A stretch of DNA of 64,000 nt, taken from the NCBI GenBank assembly GCA_965648905.1, contig CBFGIT010000004.1, positions 32,001 to 96,000 of the forward strand. Reading direction: 5' to 3'. The position numbers were made by a program, and so were the translations under genes. The notes under the pieces are model-generated. The model searched no databases and was not told where the DNA came from. It saw only the letters and a program-made list of their open reading frames with translations. Positions 49,118 through 56,671 of this stretch are shown here, one piece after another (position 1 is the stretch's first letter; each line of letters opens with the position of its first letter). This DNA is from a candidate division WOR-3 bacterium (GTDB lineage Bacteria; Hydrothermota; Tepidihabitantia; Tepidihabitantales; Tepidihabitantaceae).

Positions 49118-50389
49118 ATGTCTGCACACAGGGCTGTCCTGCAGGAACTCGGTTTGAACCTTGAGCTGCATGATGAGGTGCTGAAGTACATCGACCGGAC
49201 TTTTCAGCAGACGGTCGGTGCGCAGCATGGCCGACCCGAAGGAATCGCCTACTTCGACCAAGTGCTGCACGAGTCCCACGGCGGCCGGGTGGCCGAGCTG
49301 GTCGAACAGAAGAAGAGAGGCAGGAAGACCGTGGGCACGTTCTGCATCTACGTGCCCGAGGAACTGGCCATGGCCGCGAACACCGTGCCGGTCGCCCTGT
49401 GCGGCGGAACCCAGTTCTCGGTGCCGCATGCGGAGAAGATGTTCCCGCGCGACATCTGCCCGCTCATCAAGTCCACGCTCGGGCTGGCCTTTTCTAAGAC
49501 CTGTCCGTACGGGCCGCTCAAGAGTTTGGCCGTGGGCGAGACGACCTGCGATGCCAAGAAGAAGACCTGGGAAATCCTTGCCGGCAAGGTGAACTTCCAC
49601 GTCATGGAGCTGCCACAGAAGAAGGACGCAATCGACTTCGAGCTCTGGCGCAACGCAGTGCGGGAGTTCCAGTCGAAGCTGGAAGACCTGTCCGGCACCA
49701 AGGTCACCAAAGAAGCGCTGGGCGAGTCGATTCGGGTCATGAACAACAAGCGCCGGGCTTTGCAGGAGCTGGCCGAGCTGCGCAAGACCAGCCCGCCGCC
49801 GATTTCCGGGCTCGATGCTTTAGTCGTGATGCAGGCAGCACTGTCGGATGAACCGGTGCGCTTCACTGCGGCCGTGAATCGGCTCAACGCCGAGCTGGTG
49901 CAGCGACGGGAAGACGGATTCTCGCCGGTCGCCAGGAATGCAAGGCGGATAATGATTGCCGGCTGCCCTTCGGTGATGGGCAACTGGAAAGTCCACTCGC
50001 TCATTGAGCAGTCCGGTGCGGTCATCGTCCATGACGAAACCTGCACCGGCTCGCGTTACTTCGAGCACCTGATCGACGAGACCGCCCGAGACCTTGAAGG
50101 TCAGGTGAATGCCGTTGCCGACCGGTACATGAAGATCGACTGCGCCTGTTTCACGCCCAACAAGGAGCGCATCGATTCGGTGGTGCAGAAGGCAAAGGAG
50201 TACAACGTCCAGGGCGTCGTGCAGTACGTGCTTCAGACCTGCCACGGTTACAATATCGAAGCGATGCGCGTCGAAGCAGCGCTAAAGGCGGCAAACGTGC
50301 CAAGTCTGAAAATCGTCACCGACTACTCGGAAGAAGACGCGGGGCAGTTGCGCACGCGGATCGAGGCGTTTGTCGAGCAACTCGGCTAG
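49118..50389 (+). CDS. Double-cubane-cluster protein (2-hydroxyacyl-CoA dehydratase superfamily)
   Basis: GTFCIYVPEE, LCGG, RDICPLIKS, GETTCDAKKK, ETCTGSRYF, IDCACFTPN, QTCH and GQLRTRIEAF motifs. Confidence 0.85.
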   Translation: MSAHRAVLQELGLNLELHDEVLKYIDRTFQQTVGAQHGRPEGIAYFDQVLHESHGGRVAELVEQKKRGRKTVGTFCIYVPEELAMAANTVPVALCGGTQFSVPHAEKMFPRDICPLIKSTLGLAFSKTCPYGPLKSLAVGETTCDAKKKTWEILAGKVNFHVMELPQKKDAIDFELWRNAVREFQSKLEDLSGTKVTKEALGESIRVMNNKRRALQELAELRKTSPPPISGLDALVVMQAALSDEPVRFTAAVNRLNAELVQRREDGFSPVARNARRIMIAGCPSVMGNWKVHSLIEQSGAVIVHDETCTGSRYFEHLIDETARDLEGQVNAVADRYMKIDCACFTPNKERIDSVVQKAKEYNVQGVVQYVLQTCHGYNIEAMRVEAALKAANVPSLKIVTDYSEEDAGQLRTRIEAFVEQLG

Positions 50390-50400
50390 GAGGTCTTGTC

Positions 50401-51159
50401 AGGTCAGTTGGCATCGACATCGGCTCGCGCACGACCAAGGTCGTGGTGCTTGAAGACGGCAGGCCGGTCCACTCGTGCGTCGCCGATACCGGCACCGACC
50501 CGCTCGGCGTTGCTCAGCGCCTGCTCGCTGAGGCCGGTACTGACCGGTTGGCACGTGTCATCGCCACCGGCTATGGCCGACACCTGGTCCGTGAGCACCT
50601 GGGCTGCACCGTCGTGACCGAGATAAGGGCCCACGCGCTCGGCGCGAGCCGGCTATTCCCTGCCTGCCACACGGTAATTGACGTCGGCGGACAGGACAGC
50701 AAGGTGATAAGAGTCTCCGCGGGGAAGCAAGCAAACTTCGAGATGAACGACCGGTGCGCTGCCGGCACCGGTCGTTTCCTCGAAGTGATGGCCACGGCCC
50801 TGGGCTACACCCTGGCCGAGTTCGGTCGGGCTGCGCTCGAAGCCCCAAGCTCAGTGACCGTGAACTCGATGTGCACGGTCTTCTCCGAGTCCGAAGTAGT
50901 TTCGCTCATTGCCCGGGGTGCGGACAAGCACGCGATCGCTTGCGGTCTGCACGAGTCGATTGTTGACCGGCTGCTCGCCCTGGTCGGCCGGGTTGGAGCA
51001 GAGCCGGAAGTGGTCCTCTCCGGCGGTGTGGCACTTAACCCATGCATCCGAACGTTGCTCGAAAGCCGGCTCGGGGTCCGGCTTCTGGTGCCGGACCGGC
51101 CGCAACTTGTCGGCGCGATTGGTGCGGCGCTGAGTGTGAATGGAGCAACGGCCGTATGA
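50401..51159 (+). CDS. BadF/BcrAD-type ATPase activator (DCCP reductase/activase); no canonical start before the first motif
   Basis: GIDIGSRTTK, ATGYGR, IDVGGQDSK, MNDRCAAGTGRFLE and SMCTVFSESE motifs. Confidence 0.88.
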   Translation, partial: RSVGIDIGSRTTKVVVLEDGRPVHSCVADTGTDPLGVAQRLLAEAGTDRLARVIATGYGRHLVREHLGCTVVTEIRAHALGASRLFPACHTVIDVGGQDSKVIRVSAGKQANFEMNDRCAAGTGRFLEVMATALGYTLAEFGRAALEAPSSVTVNSMCTVFSESEVVSLIARGADKHAIACGLHESIVDRLLALVGRVGAEPEVVLSGGVALNPCIRTLLESRLGVRLLVPDRPQLVGAIGAALSVNGATAV

Positions 51160-51202
51160 ACGGCGTGCGCTATCTCTTTACACTCGGCCGGAGGTGGAAC
51201 TC

Positions 51203-51382
51203 GTGACTCACGCTGCAAAGGGAGGCAGTCTGCCTTCCGCGACCGAAGTCCGCCGTGCAGTACCAATCGCGCTGCTGGTTGCCGGGCTAGTCTGCCTGGG
51301 AATCGCCACTCTCCTGCAACAATGGGCTCTTGTCCACCAAGTGAGTACCAGTATATGACTGCCGTGCATGGGCCTGGTTTAG
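51203..51382 (+). CDS. Small membrane selenoprotein with UxxC motif (CD1871A-like CxxC family), Sec at TGA 51356-51358
   Basis: GGAGG RBS; one hydrophobic helix, then STSI-TGA-LPCMGLV-TAG; hairpin 11 nt after the TGA. Confidence 0.75.
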
Positions 51383-51386
51383 GCCC
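51370..51386 (+). promoter_or_regulatory. Putative bacterial SECIS
   Basis: GGGCCT-GGTTT-AGGCCC, starting 11 nt after the UGA. Confidence 0.7.
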
Positions 51387-51437
51387 CAAACCCGCTGTCG
51401 GAAGTCCGGCAGCACATGTTCCTGAAAGGAGGAACAC

Positions 51438-53234
51438 ATGACACCAAAGGCCGTGATTCAGGTTTTGCTGGCATTGGCTGCCACGGCCAGCGCATCGCAC
51501 CGGGTGATGGTCATCGAAGACGTCACCGCCACCTGGTGCACCTACTGCCCTGGAGCCGCGCGCGGGGCAGACGAGCTCAAGTTCCGGGCGTTCGATTCGG
51601 TGGTGGTTATCGGATACCACTCGTCCTCAAGCGACCCGTTCTATACCGCAACCGCGGCCGCCCGTATGAGCTACTACGGAGTAACGGGATATCCGACCGT
51701 GGTGCTCGACGGCTCCAACTCGATTGTCGGTGGTCTGCACACCGGTACGATGTACCCGACCTATCGTCAGTACTTTGACTACCGGAAAACCGTTCCGACG
51801 CCGCTCGAAATCGACCTGTCGGTTGCCTACGATTCAGTGAGCCGTAACGGTACTCTTACCATCGTGGTGCGCAACATCGGTTCGTCCTCAGTCAGCGGCC
51901 AGTTGCAGGTCGCGCTCATCGAGAGCCACATCTACTATCCCTGGCAGGGGATGGACAGCCTGCAGGACGTCGAGCGAACCATGCTGCCAAATGCTTCAGG
52001 CGAGGCTATCACAGTCCCGGCCGGAGATTCAGTCGTTCGTACGCGCAGTTTCAGCATCAACCCGAGCTGGGTTGCGCGCAACTGCGACTTCGTAGTCTTT
52101 GTGCAGAACAACACGAATCGCGAGATGTTCCAGGGCGCGACAATCGCGGTCATCCCCGAGCCAGTGCTTCGGTTCGTCGGTTACCAGTCGGTGCTGCCCG
52201 CACCGGGCGGCGAGTTCGACCTGACCGTTGGTCTGCGCAACATCGGCTCAGCCAATGCTCAGGGCGCAAGCGCCGCGCTCTCAACCACCGACCCGAACGT
52301 GACCGTGCTCACCGCGAATGCGAACTTCGGGCCGATCAGGGTGGCCGAGGACGGTTACGCACAGACGCCGTTTCGCATCAGCGTGTCAAGTGGCTGTCCG
52401 GACCCGCATGTCGCCTCAATGCGCCTGGTCGTCACGGGCTCGGACTTCAGTATCGACACTGTCCTCTTCCCACTCAACATCACCGCGAGCCCGGGCTACT
52501 GCGACAACATGGAGTACGGCCAGCATGGCTGGACGCACAACGGCATATTGGACAACTGGCACCTGACTACCTATCGCAGCGTGTCGCCGACTCACAGTTG
52601 GTACTGCGGCCAGGAAGGCAGCTATCAGTATACCAACGAGAATGACGCCCGGCTGATGACGCCTTTCTACACCATCGGGGACTCAACCGCGATGCACTTC
52701 CAGCACTACTACGGCACTGAGCTGAACTATGACTTCTGCCTGGTGGAAATCGGCAACGGTTCACCCTTCTGGTGGCCGCTCGCGCAGTACAGCGGCTCCT
52801 CATCAGGCTGGCAGCAGGCCGACTTCAACCTGGCCCGGTTCCAGGGGCAGACCGTGCAGGTCCGGTTCCGCTTCATCAGCGACTACAACGTGACCGGCGA
52901 AGGATGGTACATCGACGACTTCTGGAGCGGAGCGCTGACCGGGGTGGCGGAACGGTCGCATGGTCTGGTTCTTTCCACCGGGACAGGCAGCAACCCGTGC
53001 CATAAGAATGCGCGGTTGCACTATCAACTGCCCGCGGGCAGGGACGGCAGCATTGCGGTCTTCGACATCGACGGCCGCGTGGTGCGCTGCCTCAAAAGGT
53101 CAGTCACTGGTTCGGGTCGGGCCGACTGGAACCTTGCCGATGACCTCGGACAGCCGGTAGGAAACGGGACCTACTTTGTCCGACTGAAGTCAGGCGACGC
53201 TGCTCAGACCGTGAAGCTCGCCGTAGTCAGGTAG
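51438..53234 (+). CDS. Omp28-like thioredoxin-fold secreted protein with FlgD/T9SS-type CTD
   Basis: EDVTATWCTYCP, GYPTVVLDG and VVFVQ motifs; GTYFVRL terminus. Confidence 0.82.
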   Translation: MTPKAVIQVLLALAATASASHRVMVIEDVTATWCTYCPGAARGADELKFRAFDSVVVIGYHSSSSDPFYTATAAARMSYYGVTGYPTVVLDGSNSIVGGLHTGTMYPTYRQYFDYRKTVPTPLEIDLSVAYDSVSRNGTLTIVVRNIGSSSVSGQLQVALIESHIYYPWQGMDSLQDVERTMLPNASGEAITVPAGDSVVRTRSFSINPSWVARNCDFVVFVQNNTNREMFQGATIAVIPEPVLRFVGYQSVLPAPGGEFDLTVGLRNIGSANAQGASAALSTTDPNVTVLTANANFGPIRVAEDGYAQTPFRISVSSGCPDPHVASMRLVVTGSDFSIDTVLFPLNITASPGYCDNMEYGQHGWTHNGILDNWHLTTYRSVSPTHSWYCGQEGSYQYTNENDARLMTPFYTIGDSTAMHFQHYYGTELNYDFCLVEIGNGSPFWWPLAQYSGSSSGWQQADFNLARFQGQTVQVRFRFISDYNVTGEGWYIDDFWSGALTGVAERSHGLVLSTGTGSNPCHKNARLHYQLPAGRDGSIAVFDIDGRVVRCLKRSVTGSGRADWNLADDLGQPVGNGTYFVRLKSGDAAQTVKLAVVR

Positions 53235-53241
53235 GAGAACG

Positions 53242-54036
53242 ATGTCTTTGTCAGTGGCGACCAGAGCCCTTGGTCTGGCCTCCTTTCTGGGCCTGGTCGC
53301 CCTGACCGGATGTTCTTCTGCGCCCGAGGTGTCGATTATCCCGACCAACCGCGTGGTGCTGGCTGAGCTCTTTACCTGGCAGCGCTGTTCCTACTGCCCC
53401 TATGCTGCGCGCACGCTCGACAGTCTGGCCCGTGAGTTCGCAGACAGCGTGGTCGTGGTAGCGTATCACCGCCGGGTTGCGGGTGATACGCTCTCGCCCG
53501 AGTACGTCGAGGAACGACGGGCCTACTACTACGACCAGGGCGGCGAACCGGCCACGGTCTTTGACGGCGGACCGCCGGTGCGCACACCCGGGCCTGAGCA
53601 CAACTACGCGACTTTCCGCAACTACATCTTGGCCGCAAAGAGCGTGACGCCCAAGGTCCAGCTCGACCTTGCCGCGGAGCTTGACTCGCTCGAAGGCACG
53701 GTCACGGTTGCGGCGCGCGGCGTCGACTCGACACCATCAGATACTCTGCAACTGTTTGTTGTGCTGGTTGAGGACAGCGTGCGCAAAGACCTGCCCGGCG
53801 CGACTGATTCGGTGTTCAACAGCGTCATGCGGGCGATGCTGCCTGGCCCGACCGGGCGACCGATTCGGCTCACACGACTGGATACGCTGACGGTCAAAGA
53901 GTCGTTCCCTCTTAACCAGAAGTGGAACCGCGCGCGGCTCGGGGTAGTGGCGTTTGTCCAGCACCCGACCACGCAACAGGTCCTGCAGGCGGCCGCCATC
54001 CACAGACTCGCAGATACGAAAGGAGTCCAACAATGA
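53242..54036 (+). CDS. Omp28-like CxxC lipoprotein
   Basis: Lipobox ALTGC; VLAELFTWQRCSYCP; VVAFVQ...VLQA. Confidence 0.82.
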   Translation: MSLSVATRALGLASFLGLVALTGCSSAPEVSIIPTNRVVLAELFTWQRCSYCPYAARTLDSLAREFADSVVVVAYHRRVAGDTLSPEYVEERRAYYYDQGGEPATVFDGGPPVRTPGPEHNYATFRNYILAAKSVTPKVQLDLAAELDSLEGTVTVAARGVDSTPSDTLQLFVVLVEDSVRKDLPGATDSVFNSVMRAMLPGPTGRPIRLTRLDTLTVKESFPLNQKWNRARLGVVAFVQHPTTQQVLQAAAIHRLADTKGVQQ

Positions 54037-54704
54037 ACCACTCGACACTGAGGCTCTATTTCCTGGTTCTGGCAACAGGTGTCTTCCTTACCGACGCAAC
54101 GGCGTTCTCTTCGCCGTTCAGTCTGGTCTGCCGCTCTGACACCGTGCAGCAGGTAGAACCAGGCGGCCAGTCCGAGTTTCATTTCACCTTGACCAACACC
54201 GGCACGCAGCCAGACGTCTACCGGCTTGACTACCGTGTGCTCGACAGCGTACCCGGCTGGATTGTAGTCTGCTGCGTGCGCGGCCGATGCGCTGAGCCGG
54301 GCGTGCCGTTCTTCGACACGCTGGCACCGGGCGAGGCGGACTCCTCGCCCGACCTGACCGTGTACACCAACTCGACCCACGGCGAAGAGGTCGTCAATCT
54401 CAAAGTAACGTCACTGGGCGAGCCGCAGATGGTGGACTCAATCAGTACGCGTACACGCGTGGGCGCGGGCGTTGCTGAGCCGGGCCGCTCCTCCCGGGCT
54501 TGCCGGATTCAGCCCGCAGCGCGCGTCGTGCGTGACATGCTCTTGCTGGATGCTGAATGCTCGCCAGCCGTGTTGCTCGATGCCTGCGGCCGCAGTGTTC
54601 TCAGCCTGACCAGCGGCCCAAACCGAATTGCGCGGCTCGCCCCCGGCGTGTACTTCGTGCGCCCGACCGACCACAGACCGGGCGCAAAGGTCGTAGTGAA
54701 CTAA
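54033..54704 (+). CDS. Secreted Ig-like protein with CC..C motif and T9SS-type CTD
   Basis: ATGA overlap; TLTNTG..DVY; WIVVCCVRGRC; LAPGVYFVR. Confidence 0.7.
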   Translation: MNHSTLRLYFLVLATGVFLTDATAFSSPFSLVCRSDTVQQVEPGGQSEFHFTLTNTGTQPDVYRLDYRVLDSVPGWIVVCCVRGRCAEPGVPFFDTLAPGEADSSPDLTVYTNSTHGEEVVNLKVTSLGEPQMVDSISTRTRVGAGVAEPGRSSRACRIQPAARVVRDMLLLDAECSPAVLLDACGRSVLSLTSGPNRIARLAPGVYFVRPTDHRPGAKVVVN

Positions 54705-54743: not shown

Positions 54744-55010
54744 GTGACTACAGGAACGCGGCCCGGCAGGGTTCCTGCCGGCTCCTGCGAACCGGACGGC
54801 GTCGAGTTGGCCTTTGCGTCGGTGCGCGAGTTGCTGCGTGCCGGCGAGCTGCTCAGGTCGGCAGGCTTTGACGTACTGGTAGTCCCGCGCCGCGTTCCGG
54901 ATTGCGGGGCGCTGCTGCTTCTCCCGCGTCGGTCGGTTGAGGCCGCACTCGCCTTGCTTGCAGCGCACTCAATTTCGCCCGTTGAGGAGGTGAATCATGA
55001 GCGACAGTAG
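54744..55010 (+). CDS. DUF3343-like small protein
   Basis: FASVRELLRAGELL...VVPRRVPDCG pattern; adjacent to yedF-like and selD. Confidence 0.6.
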   Translation: MTTGTRPGRVPAGSCEPDGVELAFASVRELLRAGELLRSAGFDVLVVPRRVPDCGALLLLPRRSVEAALALLAAHSISPVEEVNHERQ

Positions 55011-55608
55011 TTCTGGACCGCAGAAACCAGCAGTGGAGCTTGATGTCCGCGGACTTGTCTGCCCGGAGCCGGTGGTAAGAACAAGAAAGGCTTTGGAAAG
55101 CGCCACGGTGGGAACGGTCGTGACCGTTACGACCGACAGCCCGGAGTCCCGGGACAACATCATTCGGTTTGCCCGGCGCTCAGGATGTCCGGCCGTGACC
55201 GAAGAAACAAAGTCGGGCGTCTTCATTGTTCGCATCACCAAGGCCAGTGTCCCCGGGCCGGTCTGCACGCGAACCGGCACAACCGTACTCGTTACATCAG
55301 AACGACTCGGTTCCGGTGACGACAAGCTGGGCAACCTGCTCATGACCCTGTTCCTGCGTACCCTGACCGAGCTGCCTTCACGACCATCGATTCTGGCGCT
55401 GATGAACGGCGGTATCAAACTGGCCTTGTCCGACTCGGAGCATCTTCCGTCGCTGCGTAGCCTGGCTGACCAGGGTGTCAAGGTGATGGTCTGCGGCACC
55501 TGCCTTGATTTCTTCGGGGTCAAGGACCGCGTGTCGGTCGGCACTGTCTCCAACATGTACGAACTGGCCGAATCACTCGCGGCCGCCGAGAAGGTCATCG
55601 TACTCTAA
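54997..55608 (+). CDS. yedF: Sulfurtransferase-like selenium metabolism protein (TusA/SirA + DsrE-like)
   Basis: LDVRGLVCPEPVV, GSGDDKLG.LLM, CGTCLDFFG and VSNMYE motifs. Confidence 0.88.
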   Translation: MSDSSSGPQKPAVELDVRGLVCPEPVVRTRKALESATVGTVVTVTTDSPESRDNIIRFARRSGCPAVTEETKSGVFIVRITKASVPGPVCTRTGTTVLVTSERLGSGDDKLGNLLMTLFLRTLTELPSRPSILALMNGGIKLALSDSEHLPSLRSLADQGVKVMVCGTCLDFFGVKDRVSVGTVSNMYELAESLAAAEKVIVL

Positions 55609-55621
55609 TCCAGGAGGAATC

Positions 55622-56671
55622 TTGAAGCGTCGTCTGCTCGACTACGCCAAGGCCGCGGGCTGAGCGGCCAAGGTCTGCCAGGAAGACCTGGCGCAGGTAC
55701 TGCGTCAGCTTCCTGCCTTCTCGCATCCTGACCTCCTGGTCGGCGGCGAGACCTCGGACGACGCCGGCGTGTACCGGCTCGACCCGGAACGCGCGCTCGT
55801 CTTGACCGTGGACGTGCTCACGCCGATTGCCGACGACCCCTATGTCTTCGGCCAGATTGCCGCGGCCAACTCGCTATCCGACGTGTATGCCATGGGCGGC
55901 ACGCCGGTCGCGGCCCTGAGCATCATCACCTTTCCGGTCGGCGAGATTGCGCATGACGACGTGCGGGCGATGCTCGCGGGCGCTTGGGACAAGGTGCGTG
56001 AGGCCGAAGCGGTCATCGCCGGCGGCCACACGCTCAAGGATGTCGAGGTCAAGTGCGGGCTTTCGGTCACCGGCCTGGTCCACCCGGACCGGGTGGTGAA
56101 GAACGTTGGCGCCAGACCCGGCGACACGCTGGTCCTTACCAAGCCACTCGGCACCGGTATCATCACCACTGCCTTGCGGGTCGACCTCGCGCCGGCGTCC
56201 GCAGTCGCTGAGGCAAACCGAGTGATGACAACGCTGAACCGGGCTGCGGCTCGGGCCATGTGCGAGACCGGAGTTCATGCCGCGACCGATATCACCGGGT
56301 TCGGCCTGCTTGGCCATGCCTGGGAAATGGCGCAGACCGGCGACATAGACATCGTCATCGAAGCAGAACAGGTTCCGCTCATACCCGGGGCGCTGGACCT
56401 GGCTGGAGAGTCGCTCTTTCCTGCCGGCTCGCTTAAGAACTGCGACTTCATGAAATCGCGGGCCGACTTTGCTCCGTCCGTACCTGAAGACCGGCGCCTG
56501 CTCCTGTGCGATGCCCAGACATCAGGCGGGCTGCTCATGTCTGTTCCGGAAGCCCGGGCTGATTCGCTGCTGAACCGGCTTCACGATGCGGGTGTCCAAG
56601 AAGCCGCTGTTATCGGCCGGGTCCGGGAAGGTTCTGGCCGGATTCAGGTCACCTGGACTCCCCAACTGTGA
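55622..56671 (+). CDS. selD: Selenide, water dikinase (selenoprotein; Sec at TGA 55661-55663)
   Basis: AGGAGG RBS; TTG start; MKRRLLDYAKAAG-U-AAK in frame with DDAGVY, AANSLSDVYAMGG, TDITGFGLLGH and DAQTSGGLL. Confidence 0.95.
55667..55692 (+). promoter_or_regulatory. Putative SECIS of selD
   Basis: GCC-A-AGGTCT-GCCAGGA-AGACCT-GGC hairpin just after the UGA. Confidence 0.7.

Follow-up and report, generated by a model that had tools for sequence, protein, structure and literature searches.

The upper stem-loop of the Escherichia coli selenocysteine insertion sequence (SECIS) is a 17-nt element that occupies positions 15-31 at a distance of 11 nt from the UGA and exposes G23 and U24, according to a passage of the review PMC8659212. 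Prokaryotic selenoproteins are surveyed in a review of May 2026 (PMC13188914), whose Table 1 gives a domain identifier for each of 119 families and subfamilies, among them NF045500 ('hypothetical protein GOS_C') and several families with selenocysteine (Sec) near the C-terminus, namely UXX-star, KCU-star and SaoC. The name CD1871A stands for NCBIfam NF040920, a model of 38 positions with a 32-bit cut-off for a family of unknown function. Here we analyse a stretch of 64,000 nucleotides from a candidate division WOR-3 bacterium (NCBI GenBank assembly GCA_965648905.1, contig CBFGIT010000004.1, positions 32,001 to 96,000 of the forward strand), hereafter the window, in which a small gene at 51203..51382 is almost certainly a real, mis-annotated selenoprotein gene whose UGA at 51356 encodes Sec, judging from its sequence and that of its relatives. 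It belongs to known kinds, the bacterial UxxC selenoproteins and the CD1871A-type peptides. Positions are those of the window, and its features lie on the + strand except where an opposite-strand frame is named.

The translation of the gene, together with its homologues, gives 59 codons and a TAG stop. It starts with GTG at 51203, 6 nt behind a Shine-Dalgarno-like GGAGGTG (51190..51196), and the GGAGGTGGAAC context ahead of the start is shared with the same-genus homologue and G004. The frame meets a TGA at 51356-51358, after which come seven further sense codons and the TAG at 51380-51382; the list of open reading frames made with translation table 11 ends the small frame at 51358. With the UGA read as U, the product has 59 residues, VTHAAKGGSLPSATEVRRAVPIALLVAGLVCLGIATLLQQWALVHQVSTSI-U-LPC-MGLV, and ends in ...HQVSTSI-U-LPC-MGLV. 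A hydropathy scan assigns it one transmembrane segment, a single hydrophobic stretch at residues 22-38 (51266..51316), with conserved basic residues ahead of it; in an alignment of 18 homologues R17, C52, C55 and G57 are invariant. Residue 52 is the UGA codon (51356..51358), aligned with Cys or TGA in the homologues, so that the alignment delineates a U-x-x-C motif with Sec first (51356-51367). The basic N-terminus would be cytoplasmic, and the tail of about 21 residues that ends in U-L-P-C-M-G-L-V would face outward. Searches of Pfam and NCBIfam with the small protein returned no meaningful family (no Pfam family), and its matches to MmpA and HybG at E 0.02-0.12 were set aside as noise from the hydrophobic segment.

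The strongest evidence for the selenoprotein comes from what homologues carry at the UGA. When the readthrough peptide was searched against 41 related genomes in six frames, 26 of them gave matches (E<=1), with one TGA inside or none, and Cys aligns with the UGA. The motif is present at 19 of the 20 loci of this first search that were examined, with TGA at 10 and TGT or TGC at nine of them at the same codon, and all 19 continue after this codon with L-[PS]-C-[MI]-G-[LMI]-[VG] and then stop; L027 was a false match of this search, with no motif present. A larger set, composed of 60 loci with 5-kb flanks, the window and a paralogue from the window's own genome, comprises 62 sources, all WOR-3. 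A pattern scan recovered 63 homologous genes in 61 of the 62 sources, 30 with TGA and 33 with a Cys codon, and detected no gene at L101. A profile of the WOR-3 family alignment finds 188 proteins at E<=0.01; it matches 188 of the 272 genomes of the phylum and, in the window's family, every one of the 43 other genomes. By a hand count, one TGA lies inside 62 of the 150 matches listed, 72 more matches being outside the listing.

When 22 distinct Sec tails are compared pairwise, their seven post-UGA codons differ synonymously in 704 cases and nonsynonymously in 155, and the invariant tail residues are written with several codons each (Leu with five, Cys with two, Gly with three). Because synonymous differences far exceed nonsynonymous ones, the seven post-UGA codons are read as coding. 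Public databases hold the truncated counterparts: a profile search of proteins returned entries of 37, 42, 51 and 52 aa that stop just ahead of the TGA, including one of 51 aa that is 92% identical to the window protein and ends directly before it, and Cys-form entries that carry the label 'hypothetical protein'.

The machinery for Sec insertion was looked for in the whole 3.0-Mb, 60-contig assembly, which contains a tRNA-SeC with anticodon TCA, SelA (6.7e-145) and a SelB wing domain in a 700-aa frame (1.8e-17). Within the window, SelD lies at 55622..56671 (TIGR00476, 9e-108 on the readthrough) with its own in-frame TGA at 55661-55663, the 14th codon counted from a TTG start at 55622 (G-U-AAK); table-11 calling starts SelD late, at GTG 55769, because SelD is itself a selenoprotein. 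The sulfurtransferase-like selenium metabolism protein YedF (54997..55608; TIGR03527, 9.3e-56) is encoded 14 nt upstream of SelD. On the basis of these genes, the organism is able to insert selenocysteine. The presence of SelA was tried as a discriminator between Sec and Cys forms and fails, SelA being found in 38 of the 41 relatives.

Downstream of the UGA, the message can form a SECIS-like hairpin at 51370..51386, GGGCCU-GGUUU-AGGCCC, with 6 bp and a 5-nt loop, supported by folding and by covariation. It starts 11 nt past the UGA and, counted from the U of the UGA, spans nt 15-31, 17 nt in all; its 3' arm holds the TAG stop (51380-51382), followed by 4 nt of 3' untranslated region. The 101-nt segment 51340-51440, which folds into three hairpins, has a free energy of -40.8 kcal/mol compared with -29.07 +/- 3.6 for shuffled sequences (z -3.26; 1 of 200 as good). 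For the covariation analysis, 27 of 30 distinct Sec sequences were aligned without gaps, L071 and L076 being excluded for other loop lengths and L100 being excluded as well. Columns 15-20 pair with columns 26-31 in 96.2% of cells (26 distinct Sec sequences), a value reached by none of 500 shuffles, and controls with slid partners pair at 25-65%. Both sides have changed in 14 cells, affecting three of the six pairs in the Sec forms. Pair 18-28 is C-G in 14, G-C in 8 and U-A in 4 Sec sequences; the Gly codon has its third base in column 18, whereas the first untranslated base falls in column 28, and therefore a synonymous site covaries with a non-coding one. At L079 the stem reads GGGUUU/AAACCC, and the stop there is TAA. 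In the Cys forms the same columns pair at 51.4%, as counted over 23 of 33 distinct Cys forms, the other 10 having been excluded because their tails are of other lengths. Loop position 22 is an invariant G, mostly followed by U, across the Sec alignment, and L071 and L076 retain the hairpin with different loop lengths.

These features are shared with the minimal SECIS of E. coli fdhF: a 17-nt stem-loop at nt 15-31, the 11-nt spacing, and a loop G that is mostly followed by U. The window element differs from it in that the stem is a perfect 6 bp without a bulged U, the conserved loop G is at 22 and not at 23, and the hairpin includes the stop codon; the SelB of this host, to which the element would putatively bind, is from a distant phylum. 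As in UXX-star, KCU-star and SaoC, Sec lies a few residues from the end of the protein, so that the SECIS has to extend at least as far as the stop codon. In other respects the window protein is unlike these families, whose sequences and motifs, as far as the table rows describe them, are unrelated: its Sec is eight residues from the end and is carried by a membrane-anchored peptide.

A first-pass annotation, made from the letters of the window alone, had proposed at this place a 59-aa membrane selenoprotein with a UxxC motif and a SECIS, hidden from the list of open reading frames by the TGA at 51356. Its coordinates and features proved correct: translation reproduces the readthrough ...HQVSTSI-U-LPC-MGLV, the homologues supply a Sec/Cys column and a conserved tail, and the 6-bp hairpin with a GGU loop 11 nt past the UGA has the fdhF-like geometry it described and undergoes compensatory changes in the Sec forms only. 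It had further expected standard annotation to shorten the gene, as is seen in the database entries of relatives. Had homologues ended at the TGA or left the tail unconserved, the proposal would have fallen; they carry TGA or Cys there and keep the tail L-[P/S]-C-[M/I]-G-L-V. Its statement that the gene lies in the same cluster as a Sec-containing SelD is right about SelD and its TGA, with the qualification that SelD is 4.2 kb downstream with four genes between. The account preferred here is, taken as a whole, very likely in our judgement.

The first-pass annotation had also likened the protein to CD1871A, a likeness that proved real, with a qualification. The WOR-3 profile reaches a Desulforhopalus 'CD1871A family CXXC motif-containing protein' at 3e-5, and a comparison of the WOR-3 profile with a CD1871A-type profile by hhalign gives 98.9% probability (E 1.9e-17, 45 columns), but the cut-off of NF040920, on which Desulfobacterota members score 33.4-35.9 bits, is not reached by the window protein. 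The two groups share a basic N-terminus, one transmembrane helix and a C-terminal CxxC-[IM]-G tail (...Q-I-C-L-S-C-[IM]-G), and, for the paralogue of the window protein and most WOR-3 members, also a NapH-like 4Fe-4S partner gene. The window protein differs from the CD1871A family in having Sec for the first Cys, in a 15-residue N-terminal extension, and in that a NapH-like gene is not adjacent. From this sequence comparison, we conclude that the window protein is homologous to the CD1871A family and represents a distant WOR-3 branch outside the reach of the curated model. The name of NF040920 is without the '(seleno)protein' tag, unlike certain other NCBIfam names.

The neighbourhoods of the family were surveyed by tblastn of the neighbour proteins of the window's own genome against the 62 sources, which separated two contexts. 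In the first, found phylum-wide at 42 of the 63 WOR-3 genes, a NapH-like gene starts within ~180 nt downstream, often with an ATGA overlap, and genes for a TlpA-like redoxin and a DUF6029 porin-like protein lie upstream in 31 of the 42. The arrangement recurs in Desulfobacterota, with a NapH-like gene just downstream at 28 of 28 loci and a TlpA-like gene just upstream at 10 of 28. The own-genome paralogue, on another contig (L059:6732-6869; G000:C1:120731-120868), belongs here: it is a Sec form of 45 aa with its own hairpin and the sequence ...GDPETIHRFAAQI-U-LSCMGLV (tail ...AAQI-U-LSCMGLV), and it is flanked by a DUF6029 porin-like gene on one side and the gene for a 536-aa NapH-like 4Fe-4S membrane protein on the other, with TlpA-like and Omp28-like genes upstream. 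This locus carries the only NapH-like gene of this type in the genome.

The NapH-like protein, which is a polytopic membrane protein, matches TIGR02163 and Fer4_5. Sixteen Cys residues are invariant in 32 WOR-3 sequences and are present in 24-25 of 25 Desulfobacterota partners; they form two CxxCxxCxxxCP motifs, two CX3CP pairs after transmembrane segments, and the pairs C162/C172 and C410/C413. From a crude scan of hydropathy and charge, the last two pairs are predicted to lie in loops opposite the ferredoxin-domain side, on the outer face, and the 4Fe-4S motifs and CX3CP pairs in the cytoplasm. The CX3CP motifs and two 4Fe-4S motifs are common to this partner and the NapH/MauN/NosR-type membrane ferredoxins. 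The partner differs from these families in scoring below their cut-offs (58.9 bits vs 213), in its two extra invariant Cys pairs, predicted outside, and in its pairing with a small CxxC peptide.

The window gene belongs to the second context, which comprises 18 genes at 16 loci and is spread over the window's own family and a neighbouring one. It always includes two Omp28-type thioredoxin-like genes and one gene for an exported protein of no family, and SelD lies within 5 kb at 12 of the 16 loci. In the window, these are a 598-aa exported thioredoxin-like/Omp28-related protein with WCTYC, a MAM-like domain and a type IX secretion system (T9SS) sorting tail (51438..53234), a 264-aa Omp28-family lipoprotein with lipobox LTGC and a thioredoxin-like CSYC (53242..54036), and, conserved beside the two Omp28-type genes, an exported protein that belongs to no family and has a signal peptide as well as a T9SS-like tail (54033..54704). 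The 51438 and 53242 products are Cys forms that score 75 and 49 bits on NF045500, the model of an Omp28-related selenoprotein with a cut-off of 200, and carry CxxC at the equivalent thioredoxin-like site; these relatives of NF045500 are neighbours of the small selenoprotein and distinct from it. Upstream lie a double-cubane-cluster reductase (49118-50389; Pfam, and NCBIfam NF040772 at 9.9e-140) and a BcrAD/BadFG-type ATPase activase (50443-51159; Pfam, TIGR00241), a pair that stands beside the small gene at 5 of the 16 loci, with a fragment of the activase only at a sixth. Three genes have no context match, two of them at contig ends and the third at L100.

The window copy is a paralogue that probably arose inside one WOR-3 family, in a U-x-x-C branch with two paralogues per genome. 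In a tree of 63 tails, built from 45 columns and poorly resolved, the window-type paralogues nest among Sec forms from their own bacterial family, and their Cys forms turn up in three or more places, which hints at a duplication with subsequent Sec-to-Cys reversions. At L060 (G221:C39) and L061 (G222:C223), a Cys and a Sec copy stand in tandem with a TlpA-like gene between them; the hairpin of the Cys copy is weakened and keeps G-U pairs, and looks like a decaying SECIS. L100 (G252:C92), from a distant WOR-3 family, encodes a Sec form ending in ...NASLL-U-LSCIGIG with no recognisable neighbours, and may represent an independent Cys-to-Sec change.

In UxxC oxidoreductases, Sec at the first position takes the place of the attacking nucleophile of thiol-disulfide oxidoreductases, and selenocysteine is seldom found at residues other than catalytic redox ones. 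The Sec forms therefore suggest that the working residue is the first Cys of CxxC, and the tail is read as a redox-active selenol/thiol pair because Sec occupies the nucleophile position of CxxC. The small protein may accordingly be read, plausibly though tentatively, as an outward-facing selenol/thiol redox relay. In such a scheme, SelB and Sec-tRNA(Sec) would read UGA 51356 as Sec, directed by the 17-nt hairpin straddling the UAG stop. The NapH-like protein would take up electrons at its cytoplasmic iron-sulfur (Fe-S) domain and pass them across the membrane through its cysteine-bound centres; it would then reduce the selenylsulfide of the small subunit, which in turn would reduce exported thioredoxin-fold proteins, either TlpA-like or Omp28-type. 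The window copy would serve the adjacent Omp28-type lipoprotein and surface protein, probably with the single NapH-like protein of the genome acting in trans.

Put in its most specific form, which we consider doubtful, the small peptide and the NapH-like protein would constitute a two-subunit, Fe-S-driven transmembrane selenylsulfide/disulfide reductase, with chemistry like that of ferredoxin:thioredoxin reductase at an outward Cys-bound centre; the peptide would have undergone duplication in one WOR-3 family, stayed a selenoprotein, and come to serve Omp28-type surface thioredoxins whose genes lie together with those of YedF and SelD. The proposed job is that of DsbD/CcdA, which pass reducing power to TlpA/ResA/CcmG-type redoxins, and the genomic link to TlpA-like redoxins is likewise common to both. 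The module differs from DsbD/CcdA in having no sequence relation to them, a Pfam scan of the small protein giving no DsbD_TM domain (PF02683), and in having an Fe-S protein rather than a thiol-only transporter as its partner. If true, the proposal would mean a second, DsbD/CcdA-independent export of reducing power, and would tie envelope redox chemistry to selenium supply.

Several observations weigh against this account or parts of it. The relatives compared are kin, so that counts and shuffle controls overstate independence. At L100 the hairpin is absent at +11, and a different one lies ~18 nt after the UGA, over the stop codon. In G022, a genome 92% complete with two TGA forms, SelA was not found. 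A scan of 51150-51500 against Rfam at E<=10 gave no family, a silence that we do not count as evidence against the hairpin because no match is expected for one so short. The window protein gives no match to NF040920 at E<=1 and so stays below its cut-off, and the WOR-3 Cys members give none at E<=10. The topology of the small protein was derived from a crude hydropathy scan and the positive-inside rule. No NapH-like gene was found within 5 kb of the window gene or of the other genes of its context, and the tie of the window copy to a NapH-like partner is for that reason by paralogy only. The 598-aa neighbour is sorted by the T9SS to the surface, where a peptide of the inner membrane would reach it only in transit. 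Finally, the absence of CcdA/DsbD, considered as an argument for an alternative reductant route, had to be rejected: the genome has a CcdA/DsbD-type protein on another contig (74.6 bits, DsbD_TM), and thus such a route is not needed by default.

A different role for the same selenoprotein, which we think unlikely, is that its U-x-x-C tail binds and hands on selenium or a soft metal (Cu, Hg or Zn), for example within a route of selenium acquisition that feeds YedF and SelD. C-terminal CxxC tails are typical metal sites, and the rows of Table 1 in PMC13188914 include a mercuric transport protein and a cation ATPase with UxxC/CxxU; moreover, the proximity of SelD at 12 of the 16 window-type loci, often with YedF adjacent, is kept across at least two gene orders (WIN, L071). 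This linkage, however, does not extend beyond one bacterial family and may reflect a gene order passed on by descent, whereas the association in the wider family, seen for 42 of 63 WOR-3 genes and for all 28 Desulfobacterota loci, is with NapH-like and TlpA-like genes and not with genes for selenium or metals; in addition, the tail is predicted to lie outside the cell and SelD and YedF are cytoplasmic. It is likewise improbable, and to our mind rather more clearly so, that the Cys/Sec pair is a structural ligand that completes an Fe-S or other metal centre on the NapH-like protein, making the peptide an assembly or structural subunit. The two invariant Cys pairs of the partner are predicted on the same face as the tail, and the ATGA overlap in many Cys forms suggests stoichiometric co-production, but Sec replaces the first Cys only, which is the pattern of redox-active UxxC motifs, and the window paralogue is found away from a NapH-like gene and beside thioredoxin-fold clients. 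That the TGA is a true stop of a 51-aa product, as table 11 and public annotations have it, with the downstream conservation due to an RNA element only, a terminator or regulator of the next gene, which the hairpin does precede, is hardly credible, given that in 33 of 63 homologues the codon is one for Cys and the frame runs on through the same seven residues, that differences in the tail are 704 synonymous to 155 nonsynonymous, and that the hairpin lacks a U-run and has been lost from the Cys forms, even though these too are followed by a downstream gene.

The gene adds a selenoprotein family that is unlisted in the 119-family catalogue. Table 1 of PMC13188914 has neither NF040920 nor a small membrane CxxC protein, and the terms 'NF040920' and 'CD1871A' are absent from that review as well as from the passages of the BSepDB paper; the deep-Sep paper contains none of the terms looked for on this family. 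A search of the full-text literature returned no paper for 'CD1871A' and none for 'selenoprotein' together with 'WOR-3'. Gene callers systematically shorten the gene in WOR-3. The Sec forms mark the working residue of a widespread, named and unstudied two-gene module, the CD1871A-type peptide and the NapH-like Fe-S protein, whose function is directly testable. The 17-nt element is about the smallest possible bacterial SECIS, lies over a stop codon and shows clean covariation, which makes it useful for models beyond Proteobacteria and Firmicutes.

On the opposite strand, open reading frames at 50805-51620, 51208-51369 and 51287-51439 overlap the region; they match no family at E<=1 and were taken as chance frames of a GC-rich genome. 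Among sequencing runs, no RNA run is listed as containing the sequence, and one DNA run contains 0.23 of its words. The 55-nt spacer ahead of the gene at 51438 folds into two further hairpins, one of 8 bp at 51394-51413 and one of 7 bp at 51417-51436 that covers part of the GGAGG of that gene. The 51394-51413 hairpin is seen again behind the homologue from the same genus as well as behind the Cys paralogues of G221 and G222, and the hairpins of 51394-51436 may take part in translational or transcript-level control of the 598-aa gene.

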